A model generated the notes under the pieces. The model was not told the origin of the DNA and searched no databases. It saw only the letters and a program-made list of their open reading frames with translations. From Nitrososphaerota archaeon (GTDB lineage Archaea > Thermoproteota > Nitrososphaeria > Nitrososphaerales > Nitrosopumilaceae): a stretch of 32,000 bases of DNA. The DNA lies in contig JAGWGU010000002.1 in the NCBI GenBank assembly GCA_028867275.1, forward strand, positions 67,667 through 99,666, given 5' to 3'. The translations under genes and the position numbers were made by a program. Shown here piece by piece: positions 1,119-20,416 of this stretch; position 1 is the stretch's first letter; the number at the start of each line of letters is the position of its first letter.

Positions 1119-1838
1119 TTAATTTTGTTGTTTGTTGCGTGTAACTGCAATTACTGCAATCACCACCCCTGCAATGCCTATTCCAATCCCAGTCATGCTT
1201 ATCATGTACAACTTATCAGTAGTGTCTTTAACATCACCAAATGATTTTGAAACATCAGCATACCCTTTTGCAGCTACATCAGCACTGTTCTTTGCGTCAT
1301 TTATGTCACTAGTAAGTTGACTTAGTATGGTTCCAAGTTTTGAGCTGATATTTTGCATGTCGGTATTACTTGTACTACTGCCCACCTGAGGAAAGTTCAA
1401 TGTGTCTGAGCTTAATACTTCATCAAGGGGTATCTCACCACTAACGTCTTGATCTTCAACCTTACCATTTATGGCAAGACTGTATTGTCCGGTTTTTGTA
1501 GGAATCACAGTGGCATCATATTCACCATTAGTAGTAGTGCTAGGTAGAAAATCAAGCTGTTTTACTGCATTTCCATATTTTATCGATAATTGTAAATTTG
1601 CAAGTGCATTAATTACAGGTTTACCAGTGTCAAGATGACTTCCCTTTACAACAACAACTACGACATGATTAATTTGACCTGTTAGAGGAGGCTCCTCTAA
1701 CCATCCAACTTCAACAAGATAATTTCCAAATGCTTTTGTTATGTGAGCAGATGCAGGTTGCAAAACAAGACCAGAAAGAGGTGCAGATAACGACACTATT
1801 GCTACTATGACAATTATTGCAAGAATTCTTGTGTTCAT
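1119..1838 (-). CDS. Secreted, C-terminally membrane-anchored beta-rich protein with predicted mature N-terminal His (candidate copper-binding protein)
   Basis: 239 aa. Signal peptide MNTRILAIIVIVAIVSLSAPLSGLVLQPASA|HITKAF with an AxA cleavage motif. C-terminal TM segment GIGIGIAGVVIAVIAV followed by TRNKQQN. It sits in the cluster with CopCD. Confidence 0.7.
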   Translation of the reverse strand: MNTRILAIIVIVAIVSLSAPLSGLVLQPASAHITKAFGNYLVEVGWLEEPPLTGQINHVVVVVVKGSHLDTGKPVINALANLQLSIKYGNAVKQLDFLPSTTTNGEYDATVIPTKTGQYSLAINGKVEDQDVSGEIPLDEVLSSDTLNFPQVGSSTSNTDMQNISSKLGTILSQLTSDINDAKNSADVAAKGYADVSKSFGDVKDTTDKLYMISMTGIGIGIAGVVIAVIAVTRNKQQN

Positions 1839-1864
1839 TGTAATATTACATAATTCCCTGATAT

Positions 1865-2830
1865 TTATCGCAAACCTTTCAGTCTAGTGATTGTGATTAC
1901 ACCAGCGACAGAGATCAAAGTCAATAAGACTGGCAATGGAAATTCAGGCACAGCGGCATTTGGATTACCTGCTGTAGTAGATGATGATTCAAGAGGAACG
2001 TTATAGCCAGAGATAAGACCCGGATGAATACCCTCATGAACATCCATCATTATTGTATTCCCATCAGCCTTTGCATTAAGATCAGAAATTAACTTTGTAA
2101 ATGCATCAGAGATCTTGCTGTTGTATGTATTTGATGGATTTTTCGATGCAACATCACTAAACATTTGTTGTGCAGACATAGCAAGTGCAATGGAGTTGTC
2201 ATAAGCATTTTGGTCAACAATGGCCTGAGGTTGTGGTGCCATACTCATTCCATTCATACTTCCGCTGCTACTCATTCCACCAGTATTGTTACCGTTCTTC
2301 ATGTTGTTCATATTCATGTTACTCATGTCAGTCAAGTCCACAGTGGAATTGATAGCAGTACCATATTTTTCCAACACTTCCTTTGATACATACGCTACTG
2401 CCAAAGCCTGAATTGTAGAATTGTTTGCCTTGTCAGGATCAACTCTTGCTTGAAGTGCTTCTGCCAGATAACCGTTAAGATCAGAGATGTGAGAATCAAC
2501 ACTGGCAGAATCACCAGACTTTGCCGCCTCAAGGGTGGCATTAATGGTATCAGGAATTTCCTTTGCTAAAAGGGAATTACGTTCGCCCATTTCCTTTGTG
2601 TCATTTGCGTTCCAATATTCATTTAGTGCATCAGCATAATAACCAATAGAGTCAGCATTTCCAATATTTTTTGCGACTTGGTTAACTTCTGCCTTTATCT
2701 CATATGTCTTTGCGATAAAGGTGGCACTTTGATCTCCACCAAAATTGTGAGCAAATGCAGGATGTGTGTAAATCATACCTACAACTATAATTCCTGCTAA
2801 ACATAATGCTACTACTTTTTTCACGTACAT
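1865..2830 (-). CDS. Secreted helical Met-rich protein with PEFG-CTERM-like sorting signal and predicted mature N-terminal His
   Basis: 321 aa. Signal peptide MYVKKVVALCLAGIIVVGMIYTHPAFA|HNFGG. The Met-rich tract MSNMNMNNMKNGNNTGGMSSSGSMNGMSM has 8 Met in 29 aa (nt 2240-2326). The C-terminus VPEFPLPVLLTLISVAGVITITRLKGLR has a PEF motif, a TM helix and a basic tail. Confidence 0.75.
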   Translation of the reverse strand: MYVKKVVALCLAGIIVVGMIYTHPAFAHNFGGDQSATFIAKTYEIKAEVNQVAKNIGNADSIGYYADALNEYWNANDTKEMGERNSLLAKEIPDTINATLEAAKSGDSASVDSHISDLNGYLAEALQARVDPDKANNSTIQALAVAYVSKEVLEKYGTAINSTVDLTDMSNMNMNNMKNGNNTGGMSSSGSMNGMSMAPQPQAIVDQNAYDNSIALAMSAQQMFSDVASKNPSNTYNSKISDAFTKLISDLNAKADGNTIMMDVHEGIHPGLISGYNVPLESSSTTAGNPNAAVPEFPLPVLLTLISVAGVITITRLKGLR

Positions 2831-2884
2831 CGTTAATTACATGTTATTTAAAAAGATTATAGTACAAACATCGAATGAAATTTT

Positions 2885-5800
2885 TTGAAAATTCTTGAAA
2901 ACAGAAATACTGAAAAACTTAGCAAGGATGAAATAGTAATAAGACAATTTGGATACTACTTGAAAAAATCACAAAAACAAAAACTAATTATTTTTTTGTT
3001 GATTGTTTCACCATTAGCAATTCTAACAATTTCTCACATTCCAAATTCATATGCACATGCATTAATAGCAAACAGTGATCCAAAACCATCACAGTCACTT
3101 AGTTCCCCGCCATCAAAGATTGATGTTTACTTTACAGATCCAGTAGACATCCATTACAGCCAAATTAAAGTTCTTGATCCCACAGGAAAAGAAATTGAAA
3201 ACAAGGATGAACAATACATCAAGGGTGATCAGACTGCTCTTACTGTAACTCTACCTTCAGGACTTACAAATGGAGTATATACTGTGTCCACAAAGGTCTT
3301 GGACCAAACAGATGGTCATGTTACGGAAAATGCTTTTGTCTTTGCAGTAGGTGTACAAGCTCCATCGTCACCAACAACAAAAGCTGTTAGTTATTCAGAT
3401 GTCATTTCCATACCAGATGCAGTAGCAAGATTTCCTGCCATACTAGGTCAAGTAATTGTAGTCGGTACAGCATTTTCCACACTATGGTTATGGAGGCCAG
3501 TAGGAAAAATAAATGGACTTCAAAAAATCATGTACAATGTTCGTCTCAACACGGACCGACGCGCTTCTACGCTAATGCTCATAGGCGCTGTAGTAGTATT
3601 TGCTTCTGGTTTTGGTATGATATTATCCGTAGCATATTCACTTAACACAGGATTTGCAGATGCAGTTCTGACAAAATTTGGCCAGTCATGGCTAATCCGA
3701 ATGATCTTTTCATCAGCATTACTTGCGTTAACATCTATCTTGTATTTGAGACAAAGAAAATCAAATTTGGAAATTCCTACCGGATGGACTGCTGCAATAC
3801 TTGTCACCGGTTTTGCAGTTCTTGCAACTACAAGCATAATAAGTCATGGTGCTGCAATTGGCGGTTTACCATTCACACTTGATTTCATACACAATCTTGC
3901 GGCATCAATATGGATTGGAGGTGTCATCTACATTGATTGGGTACTAATCTCAAAACTAAAAGAAATGAAGGACAGTCATACACCGTCTGCAGTCTTATCC
4001 ATGATGATACCAAAATTTTCTACCACCGTATTACCAATACTTGGTGCAGTCTTAATCACAGGGCCATTTTTACTATATCTACTTGAAAGTGATCTTTCAC
4101 TTACGATCTCTTCAATTTATGGAAAAATATTGATTACAAAATTTGTTTTTGCAGGAATCATGCTAGTGGTTGGAGGATATCACCAGATTTCAGTACATAA
4201 CAAAGCAAAATCAATTCTCGCCTCAATGACAAAGAAAGAAACTACTGTCATCAGAGGCGCCATAGCTGGTTCAGAATCTATTGACAATGGTCACCACACA
4301 AAATCACTTTTGAATAAATTTGGCATTAGCGCAAAAATTGAATCTGCTGCAGGGATTGCGTTGATAGTTACTATTGCATTATTGGTAAACTCTGGTCTTC
4401 CTGCAACAGAGTTTCAAGATCAGATAATACAAAAATCAAGTGCATTTGCGTTGTCACTTCCAGATCATTCAACTACGGTTTTTTCAGATACTAGATTTGT
4501 GGACAATGGAAACAGAATAACAGTGGCAATAGATCCATACTATGTTGGTTCCAACAATATCAAAATTTCATTCTTGGACAATCAAGGAAAACCGCTTGAT
4601 ACAACAGATATTTTTGTCTCGTTAAATCAAATTGACAGGGGAATTGGTCCATTAAGCCTCAATGCGACTCAAGTTTCCAACGGAGTGTTTACAATAGATA
4701 CTGACGCTATAACCATACCTGGAAATTGGAAGATGGAGGTACAAGGAACGCCCAATACCGCAAACGCATTGAGCCTAGTAGCCACCTATAATTTAATTTT
4801 CAAACCCCAACCCAGTCAAATGACAGCTAACATACAAGAATTTAAAATTCCAGATAATTCAACAATGCCACTTGTCCCAATATACGATAAGCAAAGAAAC
4901 GTGGTGTGGTTTGGAGATTCAAAAATTGGAAGTGGAAGACTGTTTGATTTCAACCTAGATTCAAAGAAATTCACAGAGCATAAGATCAACAATGTAAATT
5001 TGATTACATCAATAGTACTGGATAATAAAAATACCATTTGGTACATTGACCCCATAAACAAAACACTAGGCAATTTTGATCCTTCAGACAATTCGAACAA
5101 GTTGTATACTCTACCCACCAAAGGAATTCTTTCTGGCATAGCATATGACGGAACAGATAACATATGGCTGTCAGCATCAAGTACGGACGAGGTTCTAAAG
5201 TACAACATCATCAGCAGTAAATTTACTTCAATCAAGCTTCCTGCCGGATCAGTTCCACTTGGAATCTATGTCGACCAGGTAGCAAATCAAACTTGGGTTA
5301 CAGAGAGTGGAACTGGAAAAATTGCAAACATAAATGGTTCCAACATGCAATTAATTTCCGAGTACCCTACAAAAAATCAAAATATCACACTTGCTAGCCC
5401 TACTGCCATAGTTGCAGATCCACTTTCAGAAAATCTTTTCATATCAGAGCATGACGGAAAAGCAATTACTAAATTTGATCCATTATTGAAAACGTTTACA
5501 AGATACAATCTAGACCAAAATGGATTGCCTTTTGGCATGGTTTTTGACAACAATAATGAGATATGGATAGCACAACACACATTAGATAAAATTGCAGTGG
5601 TTGATCCTCGAACAGGAAACACAAACGAGTTTTCCATCCCAACGGAGTCTTCCTTTACCCAGTACCTGACTGCTGATGCAGACGGTCATCCAATTTTAGC
5701 AGAACAGAGATCTCATGCAATAGCCATAGTCACCACAACAGCAAATCCGTCATCACCAGTTAAAAATTCACAATCTACTTTGCCAATCACTAATTTGGGA

Positions 5801-5923
5801 TTTTCATACAGCGATTTAGCTGCACCTTCCATCATGATTGGTTTTATAGGAGTTGCATATTTCTATGCTAGATCAGCACTAGACCTTCAAAATAATACCA
5901 ACAAAGTAAAACAGATTTTTTAA
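2885..5923 (+). CDS. copCD: CopC-CopD copper transport/resistance fusion protein with YtkA-like Ig domain and C-terminal beta-propeller (Vgb/NHL-like repeats)
   Basis: 1012 aa. CopC hallmark begins at the mature N-terminus (NSYA|HALIANSDP, His codon 3056-3058) and includes GVYTVSTKVLDQTDGHVTENAFVFAVG. A multi-TM CopD-like region covers about nt 3410-4400. An Ig-like YtkA-type segment (NRITVAIDPYYVGSNNIKISFLDNQGKPL...GNWKMEVQG) follows. Then come about six repeats of the type NxIWFxD...I..FDP (about nt 4835-5720) and a final TM helix. There is no in-frame ATG near the N-terminus. The start is TTG at 2885, or TTG at 2960, which gives a cleaner signal peptide (MKKSQKQKLIIFLL...). Confidence 0.88.
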   Translation: MKILENRNTEKLSKDEIVIRQFGYYLKKSQKQKLIIFLLIVSPLAILTISHIPNSYAHALIANSDPKPSQSLSSPPSKIDVYFTDPVDIHYSQIKVLDPTGKEIENKDEQYIKGDQTALTVTLPSGLTNGVYTVSTKVLDQTDGHVTENAFVFAVGVQAPSSPTTKAVSYSDVISIPDAVARFPAILGQVIVVGTAFSTLWLWRPVGKINGLQKIMYNVRLNTDRRASTLMLIGAVVVFASGFGMILSVAYSLNTGFADAVLTKFGQSWLIRMIFSSALLALTSILYLRQRKSNLEIPTGWTAAILVTGFAVLATTSIISHGAAIGGLPFTLDFIHNLAASIWIGGVIYIDWVLISKLKEMKDSHTPSAVLSMMIPKFSTTVLPILGAVLITGPFLLYLLESDLSLTISSIYGKILITKFVFAGIMLVVGGYHQISVHNKAKSILASMTKKETTVIRGAIAGSESIDNGHHTKSLLNKFGISAKIESAAGIALIVTIALLVNSGLPATEFQDQIIQKSSAFALSLPDHSTTVFSDTRFVDNGNRITVAIDPYYVGSNNIKISFLDNQGKPLDTTDIFVSLNQIDRGIGPLSLNATQVSNGVFTIDTDAITIPGNWKMEVQGTPNTANALSLVATYNLIFKPQPSQMTANIQEFKIPDNSTMPLVPIYDKQRNVVWFGDSKIGSGRLFDFNLDSKKFTEHKINNVNLITSIVLDNKNTIWYIDPINKTLGNFDPSDNSNKLYTLPTKGILSGIAYDGTDNIWLSASSTDEVLKYNIISSKFTSIKLPAGSVPLGIYVDQVANQTWVTESGTGKIANINGSNMQLISEYPTKNQNITLASPTAIVADPLSENLFISEHDGKAITKFDPLLKTFTRYNLDQNGLPFGMVFDNNNEIWIAQHTLDKIAVVDPRTGNTNEFSIPTESSFTQYLTADADGHPILAEQRSHAIAIVTTTANPSSPVKNSQSTLPITNLGFSYSDLAAPSIMIGFIGVAYFYARSALDLQNNTNKVKQIF

Positions 5924-6325
5924 TACCAAATGTGTACACCGAGATGAAACCACATACATAGAGTCAGAAGACAATCTAGTACCAACACATGCTATGAAAT
6001 AAATTTCGTGCCTTGAAAGAGTCTCACATATCAAAGATGGATACCATTAATCACTCGAAATTGAATTATAAGATTTTACAACCATAACACATGAAACAGA
6101 TTTTCAAATTACAACTCAGATCTTTGCTGCATGGGCGCACGTTTTCCATACAGCGGAGATATGAGAAGGATGAAGTCGAACCGATACGCTGTGTATATCA
6201 CATACCATTTCACAAAATAAGGAAAGTGGTACATTCATCGAATATACCATTCATGATACATCAGTTCAAGAAATTAGAACTCATTCGAGAGTTGTACCAG
6301 TTCGTTTAAATTCAATTTTAGACCA

Positions 6326-6727
6326 ATGTATGCCATGTCCAAGTATGACAGCATAATAGAAAACAGGTCCAATTTACTGACTCTGATTATGTTTGCGGTC
6401 ATAGGTGTTTTGGCAATACCAGTAATCTTACCACACATTTTCCACAAATTTCAGATCTTTCACATACTCATTCATCTCAGCGGCATAAGTCTGGCAGTAT
6501 TTTTAAGCATAATATCTGCAATTGCATATTCTAGAGTTAAAACCAAGAGATTATTTTTCACAATGCTTGCATTTTCACTTTTTGTAATAGCAGAGGCATT
6601 ATCTCTTGTAGATGCAGCATGGCAATACACGTATTATTTGGGCCCATTCCCAGCAGGCGAGCTTGGGCATTTCTTTGAGTTATCAACGCTTGGAATGTTT
6701 GCACTCAGTGTGTTTAGGAAGGATTAA
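6326..6727 (+). CDS. Integral membrane protein (4 predicted TM helices), unknown function
   Basis: 133 aa, hydrophobic helices throughout. Its stop TAA (6725-6727) lies 1 nt before the ATG of the next gene. Confidence 0.6.
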   Translation: MYAMSKYDSIIENRSNLLTLIMFAVIGVLAIPVILPHIFHKFQIFHILIHLSGISLAVFLSIISAIAYSRVKTKRLFFTMLAFSLFVIAEALSLVDAAWQYTYYLGPFPAGELGHFFELSTLGMFALSVFRKD

Positions 6728-6728
6728 C

Positions 6729-7226
6729 ATGAATAGAGAAATAGAGATCATAAGCATTATTGAAAAAAATCCAGGAATAAAATTCAGGGAGATAATGAGG
6801 GAGACAGGATTAAAGAATGGAGTTCTAAGCTATCATGCAAGAAAACTAGAAGAGAATGGAAGTGTAAAGATAGATAGAAAATCTGGAGAGACTAGATTCT
6901 ATCCTCTTTTTGTCACAGAAGAAGAATCAATGTTGATAACAAGTCTTAGGCGAGACACACAAAGATACATCTTATTATCATTGTTAGAAGGCAAACTGCT
7001 TTCATTCAACGAGATAGTTCAAAAAGTGAAAAAGGCCCCTTCCACGGTTTCGACATTTCTTGCAAAACTTGTTGATGATGAAATAGTAGAGATAAAAATC
7101 ATAGAACTAAAGAAAGTATACTTTTTGAAAAACCCAGATATGGTACATGAAATTATAGAAAGATACAGCCCAGTATTACTTGAGAGAACTGCGTATAACT
7201 TTGCAGATACGTTCTCAAACCTTTAG
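6729..7226 (+). CDS. Tandem winged-helix (ArsR/MarR-like) transcriptional regulator
   Basis: I take the start as ATG 6729 (MNREIEIISIIEKNPGIKFREIMRETGLKNGVLSYHARKLEENGSV). The track start at 6612 would overlap the upstream membrane gene. A second wHTH follows (RYILLSLLEGKLLSFNEIVQKVKKAPSTVSTFLAKLVDDEIVE). Confidence 0.75.
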   Translation: MNREIEIISIIEKNPGIKFREIMRETGLKNGVLSYHARKLEENGSVKIDRKSGETRFYPLFVTEEESMLITSLRRDTQRYILLSLLEGKLLSFNEIVQKVKKAPSTVSTFLAKLVDDEIVEIKIIELKKVYFLKNPDMVHEIIERYSPVLLERTAYNFADTFSNL

Positions 7227-7343: not shown

Positions 7344-8711
7344 TTGACGAGTATACCAATCCTGCTTGCCATTACATGTATTTTATTTCCAAGTTTTATT
7401 CTCTTGTCAGCTTATGGAGATGGACTTGCAAGTGAGATACTTCCTCCTGCAATGATTGGAAACAAGAATGTTACACTATCAATCAATTCTTCACCTTTTT
7501 TGATTGACAACAATCATGTTGGTACTCAAATAAACTTCGTTTTACAGGATGCCTCAAATCAAGAGCCATTCCAAGAGGTAACACTTGCTGTTTCTGCCTT
7601 CAAAAATGACCAAGCACTTTTTGGCCATGTATTTATGAGCGACAGTGGTAATTTTCTGTTCGATGTAGTACCAGACAATTCTTCAGACAAAATTTCAATA
7701 AGCGAGCAGGGAGGAATATTTCCTGGCTTCTTGGGTCACAGTGGAAGTTACCAGATAAAGGGACCAGTTTTTGCATCAGGTGGATTGTACAAGTTCAAGA
7801 TAGATGTTCTCACAATGGGTTCCTATAATAATCAAATTAGTAAATCATACAATGCTGCAATATCAATTCCAGAGACCAAAGAATACCACATAAATGACAA
7901 CGAAGACGGCAAGCAGACAGTTACAATAATTGCATATTATGATCAGATTGGAAATTTCCAGTATGATTCAGACAAGAAGAAGATGAGTTTTTCAATGCCG
8001 TTCAACTGGAATCAAGACAACCTAAAACAAGTAACAGTGGTACATCAAGAACTCAAGATACCAAGAACATTTACCAATTTCATAGTTACAAAGTATAATG
8101 CATATGTAAATGGAGTAGAGTTGCCAGATAATGCAGTCAGCATAGATGATTATTCCTCTGATGAATACAGAATCCTACACCTTATACTATACAAGAAGGA
8201 AGTAAACGCCATTGCGGCACAACAAAGTTCCAAACCAGAGATGGACTTTACAATTTCGCCAAGCAATGAAACAGCATTTCCAATAACACAGTACACAAGA
8301 AATGCCCAGTACAAAGTAAGCCTTAGTTGGGATCCGCCAAAAATCATTTCAGGTCAGACAACAAGATTTAGTTTCCAGATTCTTGATCCATACCTGACAA
8401 ACAAGACAGTAAATTCTATAGATTATGACTTTTCCATAATAGCCGGAAAAAATGGGCTGATGTTCCACAAGAGTGGCACAACCAACAATAACGATAACCC
8501 AAATACAATTGATGTCAATTTCCCAGCAAACTATTCAGGCCCCATCACAATTGGATTTGAGAATCTAAATGGAAACAGTTTTGCAGACTCGGAAATCTCA
8601 GGAATTGTTTCAAAGCCTCGCATAGTTCCAGAATTTCCCGCAGGAGCACTGATTATTACAGTAGCCATATTTTCACTAGCAATCATGCTTCCAAGACTTG
8701 CAAAAAGATGA
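7344..8711 (+). CDS. Secreted surface protein with PEFG-CTERM-like sorting signal
   Basis: 455 aa. Signal peptide MTSIPILLAITCILFPSFILLSAYG. C-terminus RIVPEFPAGALIITVAIFSLAIMLPRLAKR. TTG start; the first in-frame Met lies after the signal peptide. Confidence 0.8.
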   Translation: MTSIPILLAITCILFPSFILLSAYGDGLASEILPPAMIGNKNVTLSINSSPFLIDNNHVGTQINFVLQDASNQEPFQEVTLAVSAFKNDQALFGHVFMSDSGNFLFDVVPDNSSDKISISEQGGIFPGFLGHSGSYQIKGPVFASGGLYKFKIDVLTMGSYNNQISKSYNAAISIPETKEYHINDNEDGKQTVTIIAYYDQIGNFQYDSDKKKMSFSMPFNWNQDNLKQVTVVHQELKIPRTFTNFIVTKYNAYVNGVELPDNAVSIDDYSSDEYRILHLILYKKEVNAIAAQQSSKPEMDFTISPSNETAFPITQYTRNAQYKVSLSWDPPKIISGQTTRFSFQILDPYLTNKTVNSIDYDFSIIAGKNGLMFHKSGTTNNNDNPNTIDVNFPANYSGPITIGFENLNGNSFADSEISGIVSKPRIVPEFPAGALIITVAIFSLAIMLPRLAKR

Positions 8712-8962
8712 AAATAAATCGAGGTGTCGGAATTTTACTAGCAGGAATAGGAATGTTCCTAGTAGGACATTTTCTTTCACAACTTGTTCTTGATTTGATT
8801 CCTACAATTAATCCGGCCAATTCAAGTGTGATTGCAGATGCAAATTATCACATGTTGTCAATTAGCAACCAATTATCAATCATAAGTCAGTTTGGACTCA
8901 TAGTGATAGTAATAGGTGTAATTATTTTCTTTATAGATAGAAGAAAAAAGATTAAACAATAA
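8708..8962 (+). CDS. Small membrane protein (2 TM helices)
   Basis: 84 aa. ATGA start/stop overlap with the upstream surface-protein gene (8708-8711). Two hydrophobic helices and a basic tail RRKKIKQ. Confidence 0.55.
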   Translation: MKINRGVGILLAGIGMFLVGHFLSQLVLDLIPTINPANSSVIADANYHMLSISNQLSIISQFGLIVIVIGVIIFFIDRRKKIKQ

Positions 8963-9021
8963 AACATGGTAAATTTTAGACATACTCTAAAATCATGTGT
9001 CGCTATTTCAAATATACCGCA

Positions 9022-9972
9022 TTATCCCTTCATGCCATATCCAACAAGTACAGAATAGCATCCAAGGCCACACTCCTCACATATTGGTTGCATCGAAGAG
9101 TTTTCTGCACTACCAATGCAGCATGGTTTTTTTTCTCTTCCCATGTGGTCAACTGATACAATTGCCCACGTAGGACAATCAATTGGAATAGTCCCCTTTC
9201 CGCCCCAGTTTTTCTTCATCAATTCAAGCTGACTGTCAGGGTTTATGATGTATTTATCATCAAATTTCTTTTTCATTGCAATGATATCATCAACTACTCT
9301 AGTTCGCTCAGGGCCAAATGGCAAGAAGAGTGGATCATTTTTTGCAAATGGAGTATGAAATTGAAATCCAATCTTATTTGTGTAGTCGTGCCATTCTTGT
9401 GCCACATCTTGTACCGTCTTGTAGTTTTGCGAGTTTATGGTCATCGTAATCCATACATCCTTCCATGCTTTCTCTCCATTATTTTTCACATACTCAAGAA
9501 CATTCTTTCTGGTTTTATCATATGATCCAGGACCGCGAATTTTGTCATGAATCTCTTTTGTGCCATCTATTGATATCCAGTAAAAGTATAGATCTGGAAT
9601 TTTTTTCAACGGCATTGTTCCATTTGATACGATACAGATTCTTTTGGGAAACTGTTTTACAAACAAGTCAATGACATCAGGTCGAAGAGTGGGCTCACCT
9701 CCAACTAGAGTAATAATGAACACATGTCTTTTCTTAAATTTCTCATCAATCACTTTTTGCCATTGCGCAATTGTGAGCTCCTCATTTTCTTTTCTGTTAA
9801 GCCACCAATAGCAGTGAGTACAGTGCAGGTTGCACACGTTGATTATATCAGCAGAGCCATACAAGGGACTCTTGCGATGAAATAACTTGTAGCCTGTAAA
9901 TTTGCCAAAGATATGAAAATAACAAGGCATCTCCCGGACTATTTGCGTAAACCCTCTACCCATTATTTCCAT
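9022..9972 (-). CDS. Radical SAM enzyme with C-terminal Cys-rich auxiliary-cluster region (layout reminiscent of HpnH-type enzymes)
   Basis: 316 aa. CNLHCTHC is a CX3CX2C motif. LVGGEPTL is the SAM-binding GGE motif. WISIDGTKEIHDKIRG is present. C-terminal cysteines: CPTW...PCCIG...CEECGLGCY. Confidence 0.85.
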   Translation of the reverse strand: MEIMGRGFTQIVREMPCYFHIFGKFTGYKLFHRKSPLYGSADIINVCNLHCTHCYWWLNRKENEELTIAQWQKVIDEKFKKRHVFIITLVGGEPTLRPDVIDLFVKQFPKRICIVSNGTMPLKKIPDLYFYWISIDGTKEIHDKIRGPGSYDKTRKNVLEYVKNNGEKAWKDVWITMTINSQNYKTVQDVAQEWHDYTNKIGFQFHTPFAKNDPLFLPFGPERTRVVDDIIAMKKKFDDKYIINPDSQLELMKKNWGGKGTIPIDCPTWAIVSVDHMGREKKPCCIGSAENSSMQPICEECGLGCYSVLVGYGMKG

Positions 9973-10500: not shown

Positions 10501-11283
10501 CTACTGGTCTCCTATTAGAAAGGTTACGTTCACAGTAGTTGTTACTTGTTGGTTTGCCGTAAATACAGGCGTTGCCTTTTCAGCCATAGACATGGCACCA
10601 TAATACATTGGAACTGGCGGCATGGTAAACTCTGACAAGCTAACCATTTTTACGCCTATTATCTTCTGGCCTAGAGGATCAAGTGCTTTTTGTGCTCGCG
10701 ACTTGGCATTCAGGACGGCCTTAGTTAGCAGATCATCTTGTATGCTTTGTTGCTTGTCAGGAGAGAGTGAGAACGAAATGTTGTCTACTCTGTTTGCCCC
10801 TGCACCTGTTGCAGCATCAATGATATCTCCTGCAAGTGACAGTTTGGTTGTCTTGACATACAAGGTGTTTGAAGCTCGGTAGCCTGTCAATACTGATTTG
10901 TGTATACCAGTGGTTGGATCAGGCACAGAATCATTGTACACTGGATAAATTGAAAATCCAGCAGTGCTGATCTCATCTTTGGTTATTCCACTGTTCAAAA
11001 CAGCATTTACCACATCATTCATCACCTGAGAGTTTGAACTTGATGCATCCTTGGCAGTCTTTGCCTCAGTGTCAACACCAAACTGAACAGTAACCAAATC
11101 TGGCGATACAGATGTGGTTGCTGAACCTGTGACAGATGCTGTCCTTTCTCGTGATGCTGGTATTACAGACACTTGTTGTCCATAGGCCCCTTTCTGAGAA
11201 ATCTCCAGGCTTGCAAATATGGCAGTTGAAACAATCAAGACTGCAGCAAGTGTTGCAAGCATGGTTTTTTTCGGAGTTGTCAT
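10501..11283 (-). CDS. SIMPL-domain (DUF541) secreted protein
   Basis: 260 aa. N-terminal signal/anchor, then SVTGSATTSVSPDLVTVQFGVDTEAKTAKDASSSNSQVMNDVVNAV and ...VNVTFLI, typical of the SIMPL/26-kDa periplasmic immunogenic protein family. Confidence 0.8.
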   Translation of the reverse strand: MTTPKKTMLATLAAVLIVSTAIFASLEISQKGAYGQQVSVIPASRERTASVTGSATTSVSPDLVTVQFGVDTEAKTAKDASSSNSQVMNDVVNAVLNSGITKDEISTAGFSIYPVYNDSVPDPTTGIHKSVLTGYRASNTLYVKTTKLSLAGDIIDAATGAGANRVDNISFSLSPDKQQSIQDDLLTKAVLNAKSRAQKALDPLGQKIIGVKMVSLSEFTMPPVPMYYGAMSMAEKATPVFTANQQVTTTVNVTFLIGDQ

Positions 11284-13373: not shown

Positions 13374-14630
13374 TTAGAGCTTACCATATTCTTCTTCGTC
13401 AGAGTACGCCCTCTCTGCATGCTCTTCAATATCAAGTCCTGCCTCTTCTACACTAGGACTCACCCTTATCGGAACTAAGGCCTTGATTATCTTGAGAATT
13501 AGCCACGTGCCTCCAAATCCCATCAGTATTGCAATGCCGACTCCAATTGCCTGAGCCCCAAGTTGTCCTGGATTTCCAAATAACCATCCGTTTATTCCAA
13601 GATGGTTTACTGCAGAGTTGGCAAATACTCCTACAAGTAATGAGCCAATAATTCCTGAAACTCCATGAACTGCGCCAATGTCAAGCGCATCATCTATCTT
13701 CAATCGTTCCTTGAGCACTGGCACCATCAGTGATGATGCAAAGCCTGCAATGATTCCAATCACTACAGCATATTCTACTCCCACGTATCCTGAAGCAGGG
13801 GTAATTGCTGCAAGACCTGCAACTGCCCCATTGATTGCAGCAATCACACTAGATTTTCTTGTTCGAATCCAAAATATTACAACCCAGATAAGACATGAGA
13901 CAGCAGATGCCATTTGCGTATTTACTATAGTAATTCCGGAAAGAGAGCCTGCAGCATATGCACTTCCAGCATTAAATCCAAACCAACCAAGCCATAGAAG
14001 TGAAGATCCAAGAACTGCAAGTGGAATATTGTGCGGGACCATGATACCCGGGCCAAATCCAAGTCTTCTACCAAGTACCAGGGCAGCTGCAATTCCACCA
14101 ACACCTGTTGTTGTGTGTATAATCATTCCTCCTGCAAAATCAACCACACCAAGCTTGTGCAACCATCCATCCCCCCAGATCCAGTGTACCAGTGGATAGT
14201 AGATCAGAGCACTCCACGCCACGATAAACAAGACATATGCACTAAACTTCATTCGCTCTGCCACTGCACCAGTAAGTATCAGTGGCGTGATTACTGCAAA
14301 CATCATCTGGAACATTGCAAACGAGACTCCAGGTACAGTTGGCGCATAATGGAGTCCCTCATTTTGAGACACTCCTTTTAGGAATCTCCAGTCCATGTTA
14401 CCTGTGATTCCTTCACCAGTATCAGGACCAAAAGTCAGACTAAAACCTACTGTAAACCACATCACACTTAGCAATGCAAGACCAAAGAAGATCTGCATAA
14501 AGACAGAGACTGCGTTTTTTTGTCGTAAAAGGCCAGCCTCAAACATACCAAGTGCAGGTATCATAAGCAGCACCAAACTAGATGCTATCATAAGCCAAGC
14601 AGTATCACCTGTGTTTATCGGAACGGGCAA
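13374..14630 (-). CDS. amt: Ammonium transporter (Amt/MEP/Rh family)
   Basis: 418 aa with about 11 TM helices. Family signatures GDTAWLMIASSLVLLMIPALGMFEAGLLRQKN, DFAGGMIIHTTTGVGG and GAVHGVSGIIGSLLVGVFA. TTG start at 14630 with an in-frame TGA just upstream. The conserved first TM helix precedes the first ATG. Confidence 0.95.
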   Translation of the reverse strand: MPVPINTGDTAWLMIASSLVLLMIPALGMFEAGLLRQKNAVSVFMQIFFGLALLSVMWFTVGFSLTFGPDTGEGITGNMDWRFLKGVSQNEGLHYAPTVPGVSFAMFQMMFAVITPLILTGAVAERMKFSAYVLFIVAWSALIYYPLVHWIWGDGWLHKLGVVDFAGGMIIHTTTGVGGIAAALVLGRRLGFGPGIMVPHNIPLAVLGSSLLWLGWFGFNAGSAYAAGSLSGITIVNTQMASAVSCLIWVVIFWIRTRKSSVIAAINGAVAGLAAITPASGYVGVEYAVVIGIIAGFASSLMVPVLKERLKIDDALDIGAVHGVSGIIGSLLVGVFANSAVNHLGINGWLFGNPGQLGAQAIGVGIAILMGFGGTWLILKIIKALVPIRVSPSVEEAGLDIEEHAERAYSDEEEYGKL

Positions 14631-19345: not shown

Positions 19346-20416
19346 TTATTTTTCAGATCTTTCGGTAAGCCATTGGCCAAATTCAGGAAGAACCTTTTTT
19401 TGTGAAAATGAACTTGCGATCATGCCCACATGCCCAGTGGGGTATATCTTTAGCGTCTTGTCTTGACTTGATACAGAATAGTGAATCGGCATGCTGCATT
19501 CGGGCGATACCAAGTGATCACCCACTGCAACCTGTGTAAGAAGCGGCATGGCAATATTTTTCAGAGACACCCGTCTTCCCCCCACGTACATGTTGTTATT
19601 TATCAAGAGATTTTCTTGGTAGACATCTTTTATCCACTGGCGGAACAACTCTCCTGGAATTGGAGGTGTATCAGAGATCCATTTTTCCACTCGAATAAAG
19701 TTTTCAACATATTCTTTATCATGTATATTTTTAAAGAAATTAAGATATTTTTCAAAGCCTTGCTCAAATGGTTTTAGTATTGAGAAAACATAATACATCA
19801 GCTCAGGAGGCATGTTGCCAAGTGTGTCTACCAACTTGTCAACATCCATATGTTTTGCCAAGTTTGATACTACGGTACTATCTCTTCTTCCGTCAATCAC
19901 GGGGGCAGTAAGAACCAAGTTCTTTATTTTTTCAGGATGTAATGCAGAATAAACGGTGGAGAGGGTACCGCCAGTACAATATCCTTGCAGTGATACTGCA
20001 TCAGACGAGGATTCTTTTCTAATAAAATCTATACAGTTGTCCATATAACCATTGACATAGTCATCAAACCCCTCATGTCGATTGATTTGAGTTGGTGTTC
20101 CCCAGTCAATCAGATAGACATCAACTCCCTGATTTAGCAAGTTTCTCACCCAGCTCTTTTTTGGATGAATATCCAAAATGTGGAATCTGTTTATCAAAGC
20201 ATATGCAATCACAAGCGGTGTCTTCATTTGCCTTTGAACCAATGGATTAAAGTGTAATAATCGAACTTTTCCTTCAGAGTACACAACTTCATTCGGAGTT
20301 ATTTCAAGATCTATCTCATCAAGAGATTGGGCAAGATTTGGTGCCTCTAGTATGTTCTTGTTTAGTTTGATAAAGTCTGCCAATAGCTGTGGATCTACTT
20401 TTATTTCATTTGCCAT
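19346..20416 (-). CDS. phaC: Class III poly(3-hydroxyalkanoate) synthase, catalytic subunit PhaC
   Basis: 356 aa, the size of class III PhaC. Lipase-like box with catalytic Cys in LQGYCTGGTLS. Conserved Asp in AVGDHLVSP and His in PTGHVGM. SD GGGAGGA (complement of 20424-20430) lies 7 nt upstream of the ATG. Confidence 0.92.
   Translation of the reverse strand: MANEIKVDPQLLADFIKLNKNILEAPNLAQSLDEIDLEITPNEVVYSEGKVRLLHFNPLVQRQMKTPLVIAYALINRFHILDIHPKKSWVRNLLNQGVDVYLIDWGTPTQINRHEGFDDYVNGYMDNCIDFIRKESSSDAVSLQGYCTGGTLSTVYSALHPEKIKNLVLTAPVIDGRRDSTVVSNLAKHMDVDKLVDTLGNMPPELMYYVFSILKPFEQGFEKYLNFFKNIHDKEYVENFIRVEKWISDTPPIPGELFRQWIKDVYQENLLINNNMYVGGRRVSLKNIAMPLLTQVAVGDHLVSPECSMPIHYSVSSQDKTLKIYPTGHVGMIASSFSQKKVLPEFGQWLTERSEK

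Follow-up and report, generated by a model that had tools for sequence, protein, structure and literature searches.

A gene cluster in a 32,000-nucleotide stretch of contig JAGWGU010000002.1 (assembly GCA_028867275.1, positions 67,667 to 99,666; hereafter the window) is best read, with a probability of about 0.6, as a copper-acquisition module in which a YcnJ-like importer is surrounded by non-homologous partner proteins that mature to an N-terminal histidine. The core consists of three neighbouring open reading frames (ORFs): protein A (1119-1838, minus strand, 239 residues), protein B (1865-2830, minus strand, 321 residues) and, divergent from these two, the copCD fusion gene (2885-5923, plus strand, 1012 residues). 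B and A share a strand, with B 26 nt upstream, and probably form one operon. As the closest relatives of every gene come from Nitrosotalea or other Nitrosopumilaceae, the host is assigned as a Nitrosotalea-like ammonia-oxidising archaeon; the GC content is about 36-40% over most of the window. A preliminary description of this DNA had already interpreted the three genes as a copper-acquisition cluster with N-terminal-His proteins, an interpretation supported here in its computationally testable parts. The module is wider than the span described there: a membrane protein/ArsR-type regulator pair belongs to it, and so does P455, a fourth exported family. New within this known kind of system are one large unannotated family (A) and one lineage-restricted protein without a fold match (B).

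The three ORFs had been singled out for an AxA-type site followed by His, and their coordinates, strands and junctions (QPASA|HITKAF in A, HPAFA|HNFGG in B and NSYA|HALIANS in CopCD, the bar marking the predicted cleavage site) all proved exact. In each case a basic n-region, a hydrophobic h-region and a small-x-small c-region precede the histidine, and signal-peptide cleavage is predicted to expose it. The signal peptide of A spans residues 1-31 (nt 1746-1838), followed by the codon of His32 (1743-1745); that of B spans residues 1-27, followed by the codon of His28 (2747-2749) at the start of the sequence H-N-F-G-G-D. The AlphaFold models show a helix at residues 2-18 of A and 2-20 of B, then disorder, and the folded domain begins one or two residues past the histidine. 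The A-x-A|H junction is invariant, whereas the signal-peptide residues before it vary. The histidine at +1 is invariant in all three families: it is present, preceded by Ala, in each of the 133 proteins that cover this position among the best 150 relatives of A, in all 69 A-family ORFs of the related loci that cover the N-terminus and, as A-x-A|H, in all 45 B homologues found in these loci; in CopC it is the residue that aligns with His1 of the solved CopC and YcnJ-CopC.

Scanned crudely for signal peptides, the ORFs of at least 100 residues in the window and 64 related loci yielded 327 signal-peptide-like ones, 100 of which have His at +1. These 100 are A, B, CopC and P455-like proteins, one more protein encoded beside a bacterial-type CopCD and two ORFs that are probably not genes; outside the A, B, CopC and P455-like families the frequency is about 1% or less. 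Against this background, three adjacent cases are no coincidence. In the window alone nine ORFs were flagged, with His at +1 solely in A and B; CopCD was missed because its ORF start is over-long. The invariance of the histidine across families at less than 30% identity argues for selection on the N-terminal residue itself.

The long protein is, judged by its domains, a YcnJ-like CopC-CopD-Ig (immunoglobulin-like) fusion to which a propeller and a terminal membrane helix have been added. Its translation probably starts at the in-frame TTG at 2960 (MKKSQKQKLIIF...) rather than at 2885. The listed start, TTG 2885, puts 25 non-signal-like residues first; a start at TTG 2960 yields an ordinary signal peptide of 32 residues and a divergent promoter region of 129 bp (2831-2959). 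The CopC domain (nt 3056-3364, from His58) matches PF04234 over the full model length with 57.2 bits (cutoff 23.3; residues 58-155), and model position 1 falls on His58. Two PDB entries match it, Methylosinus CopC (5ICU) and, as the closest, 9C14, which is the CopC domain of Bacillus subtilis YcnJ; both chains begin at the residue aligned with His58, and the D-G-H ligand motif is aligned too. The CopD membrane domain occupies about nt 3422-4384 (PF05425, 38.2 bits, cutoff 32.1, residues 374-500). His58, Asp143 and His145 of CopC and His321, Asp333 and His336 of CopD are conserved across 47 CopCD proteins from related and distant loci, His321 in 100% and His336 in 98% of them. No solved CopD structure was found for mapping these residues onto His295 of YcnJ.

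Between CopD and the propeller, residues 545-624 (nt 4517-4756) resemble a YtkA/FixH-like Ig domain, with scores below threshold for both FixH (20.2 bits, cutoff 23) and YtkA (18.5 bits, cutoff 25.9); a precomputed weak YtkA match is also recorded for the CopCD homologue of one distant locus (L064 in our numbering of the retrieved loci). The beta-propeller, of the Vgb_lyase/SGL type, covers residues 649-954 (nt 4829-5746), the best stretch being 788-954, and scores 80.9 bits against a Vgb_lyase cutoff of 50. The C-terminus is a membrane helix.

There is not a single Met in the CopC domain, which places it in the Cu(II)-only C0-1 type. Like Methylosinus trichosporium CopC (5ICU), it has His1 and D-x-H and is devoid of a Met-rich Cu(I) site. 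This type is associated with uptake, which speaks against the improbable alternative that CopC, A and B serve copper resistance by holding excess copper at the surface and out of the cell, as first proposed for cop operons. Such sequestration would agree with the proposal that YcnI withholds Cu(II) from YcnJ and so limits entry, and with the Met-rich loop of B described below, since loops of this kind are typical of Cu(I) detoxification proteins such as CopA and PcoA, and B has a weak match to CopA. The cluster, however, contains neither a multicopper oxidase CopA nor a CopB partner, and the orthologous region of Nitrososphaera viennensis is induced by copper limitation; the core of its motif precedes the B-A operon here.

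Protein A belongs, on sequence grounds, to a family that is unannotated. Residues 32-145 (nt 1404-1745) form an Ig-like beta-sandwich in the AlphaFold model, with a predicted local distance difference test (pLDDT) score of 81-88 over residues 31-140. It is followed by a long helix that is probably a stalk (residues 161-206, nt 1221-1358; modelled with low confidence) and by a C-terminal membrane helix at about residues 212-233 (nt 1140-1205). When an exhaustive search was run with a profile of only the beta-domain, the matches comprised at least 922 clusters at 50% identity for an E-value limit of 1e-3 and 215 for a limit of 1e-10. Nearly all of these matches start 20-35 residues into the protein. 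Many members have Ala/Arg-rich sequences of high-GC style, with a canonical A-x-A|H and an RRR-flanked C-terminal helix. A word-indexed homologue search with a diverse A alignment returned 17 proteins, the named ones all from Nitrosotalea. Not one of 117 A members has a Pfam family above threshold; weak matches were limited to Filamin (five), YtkA (four, the best at 5.5e-5) and FixH (one), and DUF1775 was not among the families matched with E up to 0.01. A literature search found no paper describing the A or B families.

The conserved residues of A gather close to the N-terminus. Ala31, His32, Gly38, Asn39, Tyr40, Trp46, Glu49, Pro50 and Asn57 are invariant, and in the best 150 relatives Gly-Trp, Glu-Pro and Asn are conserved 14-26 residues after the histidine. 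There is no second conserved His in A; any copper site would therefore be a mono-histidine brace, made of His with Glu and Trp as in YcnI or Ang-1, and not a two-His site. Strands 33-37 and 40-46, assigned by DSSP in the model, form a hairpin around the invariant Gly38-Asn39, and this hairpin would set Trp46 and Glu49 beside His32. The stalk helix resembles the trimeric coiled coil of Lpp, and single relatives match the Pfam families LPP and Alanine_zipper; these hints suggest that A may form oligomers, presented on a stalk that is a coiled coil. The A profile gave only noise against PDB sequences (Lpp coiled coil, E 0.3; contactin Ig, E 0.008).

In the fold search, the top PDB match of A was Helicobacter pylori CrdA, a small periplasmic beta-sandwich that binds Cu and Ag (E 1.4e-4, template modelling score 0.64 on the target, 17% identity). 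The only detectable remote sequence relationship is to YtkA/CtaK and FixH, with all scores under the family thresholds. The A domain aligns over 79 columns with the Ig domain that follows CopD in CopCD proteins (hhalign probability 49%, E 1.7e-4), an alignment that leaves out the His-bearing N-terminal hairpin. Perhaps, then, A is a distant Ig domain of the YtkA/FixH type that gained such a hairpin.

The same relationship can be read another way, with A and B as metallochaperones that load extracellular copper enzymes (ammonia monooxygenase (AMO), plastocyanin-like proteins, multicopper oxidases, aa3 CuA) instead of feeding the importer. A would then resemble CtaK/YtkA or PCuAC in function, and it would be linked to CopCD through a common assembly pathway. 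We regard this as unlikely, but as deserving some weight: besides the hhalign result and the four weak YtkA matches among 117 relatives, B. subtilis has two aids to CuA assembly in CtaK and the YtkA domain of YcnJ, one distant A gene lies near a CtaA/COX15 gene, and Reyes et al. discuss CopC as a possible chaperone for an oxidase or AMO. Yet the relationship to YtkA is weak and excludes the hairpin that bears the histidine, and A is linked to CopCD and not to oxidase or amo genes. CtaK also differs from A in being a lipoprotein rather than C-terminally anchored. A role as chaperone would, moreover, be compatible with the import model.

Protein B was modelled confidently as an all-helical bundle of nine helices (pLDDT 80.7, predicted template modelling score 0.73). 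Its best fold match, to alpha-catenin four-helix bundles, has an E-value of 0.12, so that the fold was left unassigned; its profile had no match to PDB sequences. A single-sequence search gave 275 homologues; those with archaeal names all belong to Nitrosotalea, Nitrososphaera and other Thaumarchaeota/Nitrosopumilaceae, and one is labelled Verrucomicrobiae. Using hmmsearch on all ORFs of the 64 loci, B was found on Nitrosotalea-like contigs only, plus one divergent Thermoproteota copy. In the main clade, the mature start H-N/T-F-x-x-D, several Glu pairs and the motif M261-x-D263-x-H265-x3-H269 (nt 2024-2050) are invariant. A divergent clade, at 29-36% identity, retains A-x-A|H, and His265 and His269 are kept in all but one divergent copy. 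Considering the two-His brace of the LPMO (lytic polysaccharide monooxygenase), CopC and PmoB type, B has His265 and His269 as conserved histidines besides His28, where A has no second one.

Residues 165-200 of B (nt 2231-2338) form a Met-rich loop with eight Met in 36 residues. The loop varies in length among homologues, is rich in Met, Ser and Gly, and weakly matches the Met-rich region of the multicopper oxidase CopA. At the C-terminus, a PEFP motif, a membrane helix and a basic tail (residues 294-321, nt 1868-1951) follow one another. This pattern of PEF(P), hydrophobic helix and basic tail is visible in both B and P455 and resembles the PEFG-CTERM archaeosortase signal; scores are below threshold for both, at 14.1 bits for Loki-CTERM in B (cutoff 19.9) and 13 bits for PEFG-CTERM (TIGR04296) in P455 (cutoff 25).

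The neighbourhood is retained in related genomes and, for A, even in distant high-GC organisms. In the 58 genome loci retrieved, tblastn revealed the order P316 (radical SAM), P84, P455, helix-turn-helix regulator, small membrane protein and copCD, followed by divergent B and A. A CopCD gene lies within 3 kb of A in 49 of the 50 informative loci. B, where found, is always near copCD, but it is missing or has moved to the far side of copCD in some loci; A then directly adjoins copCD, 74-300 bp away, as also in marine Nitrosopelagicus. Five distant A relatives, picked solely by the length of their contigs, were sampled as well, and four of them are linked to CopCD. One (L059, GCA_030157145.1, 63% GC, with bacterial-type neighbours) lies 7 bp upstream of a plain CopC-CopD gene of 609 residues. 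Two are divergent from CopC-CopD-propeller genes, in contigs of 33% and 71.5% GC, the latter pair being 70 bp apart; of the remaining two, one is 2.2 kb from a CopC-CopD-propeller gene and one is unlinked. The linkage of A to CopCD hence persists far beyond the ammonia oxidisers.

Some loci show variations on this arrangement. In a second Nitrosotalea clade (L006, L035-L037, L040-L045 and L049, around 7500-9500), A is duplicated in tandem by copCD, with a short copy of about 150 residues that has no membrane helix and one or two longer ones, all with HPAEA|HILK; in this clade B lies beyond the far end of copCD. In L032 (3188-9688) and L039 (Nitrosotalea sp. TS), near-identical inverted A-B pairs flank copCD on both sides, in the order copCD-A-B and not copCD-B-A; either a genuine inverted duplication or an artefact of assembly could account for this. 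In L059 (5926-9053), which is probably bacterial, a 202-residue ORF overlapping the end of the CopC-CopD gene has a predicted N-terminal His (GSA|HGGG), and a DUF1529 gene is located just upstream.

Downstream of copCD, and conserved beside it, the window encodes a small membrane protein of 133 residues (6326-6727, plus strand) and a regulator with two winged-helix domains, HTH_24 and an ArsR-type HTH_5 (6729-7226, plus strand), which has a weak NCBIfam match to the metalloregulator ArsR/SmtB. The regulator likely starts at ATG 6729, 1 nt past the stop of the membrane-protein gene, and with this spacing the translation of the two is probably coupled. The regulator ORF as listed, from 6612, overlaps the membrane-protein gene only through an upstream in-frame ATG.

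Both the B-A operon and this pair are preceded by the sequence TTCGN4TTGTAC. The first copy, TTCGATGTTTGTAC (2862-2875, minus strand), is located 7 nt upstream of the TATA-like box TTTTTAAAT (2846-2854, minus strand) of B-A. The second, TTCGAGAGTTGTAC (6284-6297, plus strand), is followed after 7 nt by the TATA-like TTTAAAT (6305-6311); it lies 29 nt ahead of the start codon, ATG, of the membrane-protein gene. TTCGN4TTGTAC is the core of the published 18-nt copper-limitation motif of N. viennensis, TTCSGSMTTTGWACYANT, which itself has one match with two mismatches in the window, at 6284-6301. In N. viennensis, the motif precedes genes around copC/D that are induced by copper limitation, including a membrane protein co-transcribed with an ArsR regulator (NVIE_014290/014280), a pair mirrored by 6326-7226 of the window. 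In soil ammonia oxidisers, biofilms too show induction of the copCD region, along with copper-acquisition genes. In related loci, the element is found upstream of B genes exactly in 24 of 37 cases and with at most one mismatch in 29 of 37, including loci in which B has moved, and it occupies homologous sites although the intergenic regions have otherwise diverged (L001-L054). It is also kept upstream of the membrane-protein orthologues, and is often joined by another, inverted copy that faces copCD. A likely candidate for binding the element is the ArsR-type regulator of the cluster.

Beyond the regulator lies P455 (7344-8711, plus strand), an exported protein of 455 residues with a PEFP-type C-terminal anchor that is co-conserved with copCD and A; the family is found beside them even in the contig of 71.5% GC. 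Copies are located at 11334-12995 in L043, 11187-12842 in L051, 7374-8906 in L061, 7747-9561 in L062, and both 2860-4302 and 6387-7769 in L064. The predicted mature start is D-G-L-A-S-E in Nitrosotalea, and H-G-L-G-G-D or H-G-A-G in Nitrosopelagicus and distant lineages, H-G-L-G-G-D resembling the H-N-F-G-G-D of B. P455 may be a fourth N-terminal-His family of the module, in which the His has been swapped for Asp here.

Several observations weigh against the copper-import reading. CopC and CopD were named for resistance, the role in which CopCD systems were first described. For A and B, neither Pfam nor NCBIfam gave anything above noise, and DUF1775, CopC and PCuAC were not matched; this agrees with the earlier view that CopC and CopD are the only recognisable families of the cluster. 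The preliminary description had also proposed a comparison with YcnI/DUF1775, CopC and PmoD-like proteins, but by neither sequence nor fold search do A and B match any of these. As a CopC paralogue, A was rejected at an hhalign probability of 0.4-1%; as a member of DUF1775/YcnI (PF07987), it was rejected with no match at E up to 1 and an hhalign probability of 0.1% against the 7ME6 sequence. In the fold search of A, filamin-type Ig repeats come close behind CrdA, so that its fold alone is not diagnostic; YcnI is not among the top 50 matches. The two exact occurrences of TTCGN4TTGTAC in 32 kb compare with 0.09 expected, a statistic biased by the choice of the core after both sites had been seen, and the full motif TTCSGSMTTTGWACYANT, at up to three mismatches, has five matches against 1.55 expected, which is weak on its own; the core became informative through its comparison across loci. 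The 58 loci had been retrieved with A-derived patterns and stem mostly from one archaeal order. Finally, an N-terminal His can bind Ni or other metals.

This last point leads to the very improbable alternative that the N-terminal His of A, B or both serves Ni, Zn or Fe, or has a non-metal role in maturation, sorting or surface-layer contact, the two being envelope proteins that merely lie beside copCD. Proteins with an N-terminal His do include Ni-binding families, the fold of A is like that of generic filamin-type Ig domains, the archaeosortase-type tails of B and P455 are typical of surface proteins, and the mature P455 of this lineage starts with Asp and not His. A chance neighbourhood is difficult to reconcile, however, with a linkage of A to CopCD that lasts across very distant lineages, with conserved residues that gather at the N-terminus and not over a surface, and with a B-A promoter element shared with the copper-limitation motif.

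Among characterised systems, YcnKJI of B. subtilis, in which YcnK is the regulator, comes closest to the cluster. There, YcnJ (CopC-CopD-YtkA) needs its N-terminal-His Cu(II) site and a CopD His. YcnI, which begins with His once its signal peptide is removed and has a C-terminal helix as its tether, holds Cu(II) in a mono-histidine brace (His, Glu and a nearby Trp) and exchanges it with YcnJ, and both support growth under copper limitation. As in that system, the importer here combines an N-terminal-His CopC, CopD and a following Ig-like domain, the adjoining gene (A) encodes a beta-sandwich with a signal peptide, a conserved His at the mature start and a C-terminal membrane-helix tether, and the cluster contains a helix-turn-helix regulator and is tied to copper limitation. 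These are shared functional features and no sign of homology: since A is no member of DUF1775, it would be YcnI-like in its working but is not a YcnI. Its candidate Glu and Trp lie 14-17 residues past the His, while those of YcnI lie at +23 and +110. The importer here also has a beta-propeller and a C-terminal helix, B comes as a further partner and P455 as a fourth exported family, the regulator is of the ArsR/MarR type, and the promoter is archaeal. Nor are A and B paralogues within the CopC family.

A second parallel is offered by signal-strapping, the search for a signal peptide followed by His, with which Franco Cairo et al. (2025) obtained new Cu-binding Ig-like proteins with mono-His braces beside permeases. 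This precedent raises the prior for copper binding by A and B. Like A, the "anglerase" proteins Ang-1 and Ang-2 have a signal peptide, an invariant His, an Ig-like beta-sandwich and few other conserved ligands, and are set beside or fused to a membrane metal permease; their Cu(II) affinity has been shown, where A is a candidate. Ang-1 and Ang-2 are bacterial and fused to HupE/UreJ-2 permeases, in contrast to A, which is a separate gene product with its own anchor and coupled to CopCD. A matches none of the Pfam models for the signal-strapping families. The region NVIE_014250-014340 of N. viennensis, which belongs to a different order of ammonia oxidisers, shares with the window its CopC/D fusions, the motif ahead of an ArsR regulator and its membrane-protein partner, and nearby genes for exported proteins without a known function.

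Building on the gene structures, domain families, residue invariance, synteny and motif conservation, we infer how cleavage, copper binding by particular ligands, the direction of transfer and the pairing of regulator and motif could fit together. The extracellular CopC domain would bind Cu(II) via the N-terminal His58 together with Asp143 and His145. CopD, with the conserved His321 and His336, would be the membrane part, followed by the YtkA/FixH-like Ig domain and the beta-propeller. The B-A operon would produce two membrane-anchored surface proteins, both cut to an N-terminal His. A, with its Ig-like beta-sandwich on a helical stalk, most likely takes one Cu(II), to which His32 would contribute its amine and imidazole, together with the invariant Glu49 and Trp46 from the adjacent hairpin strand, and would then exchange it with the CopC domain, making A a functional, non-homologous analogue of YcnI. 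B probably captures copper outside, using His28, His265 and His269 together with the Met-rich, Cu(I)-type loop, and would feed A or CopC. Copper limitation probably turns on expression by way of the TTCGN4TTGTAC elements next to the TATA boxes, with the ArsR-type regulator as the likely binder.

A more far-reaching version of this proposal is tentative, and we hold it with less than even confidence. In it, A, B and P455 found undescribed N-terminal-His copper families. A would be a CopCD-coupled Cu(II) shuttle derived from a YtkA/FixH-like Ig domain, independently of YcnI, with a family spread over archaea and high-GC, probably bacterial, organisms; B would represent a new helical fold combining a His brace with a Met-rich Cu(I) loop. 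Together with an ArsR-type regulator at TTCGN4TTGTAC, they would constitute a high-affinity capture system supplying AMO in acid-soil ammonia oxidisers.

Other genes in the window, all on the minus strand, encode a radical-SAM protein (9022-9972) that most loci retain at the cluster's edge, a SIMPL/DUF541 protein (10501-11283), an Amt ammonium transporter (13374-14630) and a PhaC-like alpha/beta hydrolase (19346-20416).

Ammonia-oxidising archaea run both ammonia oxidation and electron transport on copper enzymes. As to how they obtain the metal, transcriptome studies have implicated the CopC/D region, with its neighbours recorded as "exported proteins of unknown function". These neighbours now gain a testable role, with residues to mutate (His32, Trp46 and Glu49 in A; His28, His265 and His269 in B), and a candidate operator and regulator are available for the control by copper limitation. 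For the recently established idea derived from YcnI and YcnJ, that tethered sites with an N-terminal His exchange Cu(II) outside the cell, the results suggest a second, non-homologous implementation, which would sit in a family of at least 922 sequence clusters left without annotation in the domain databases.

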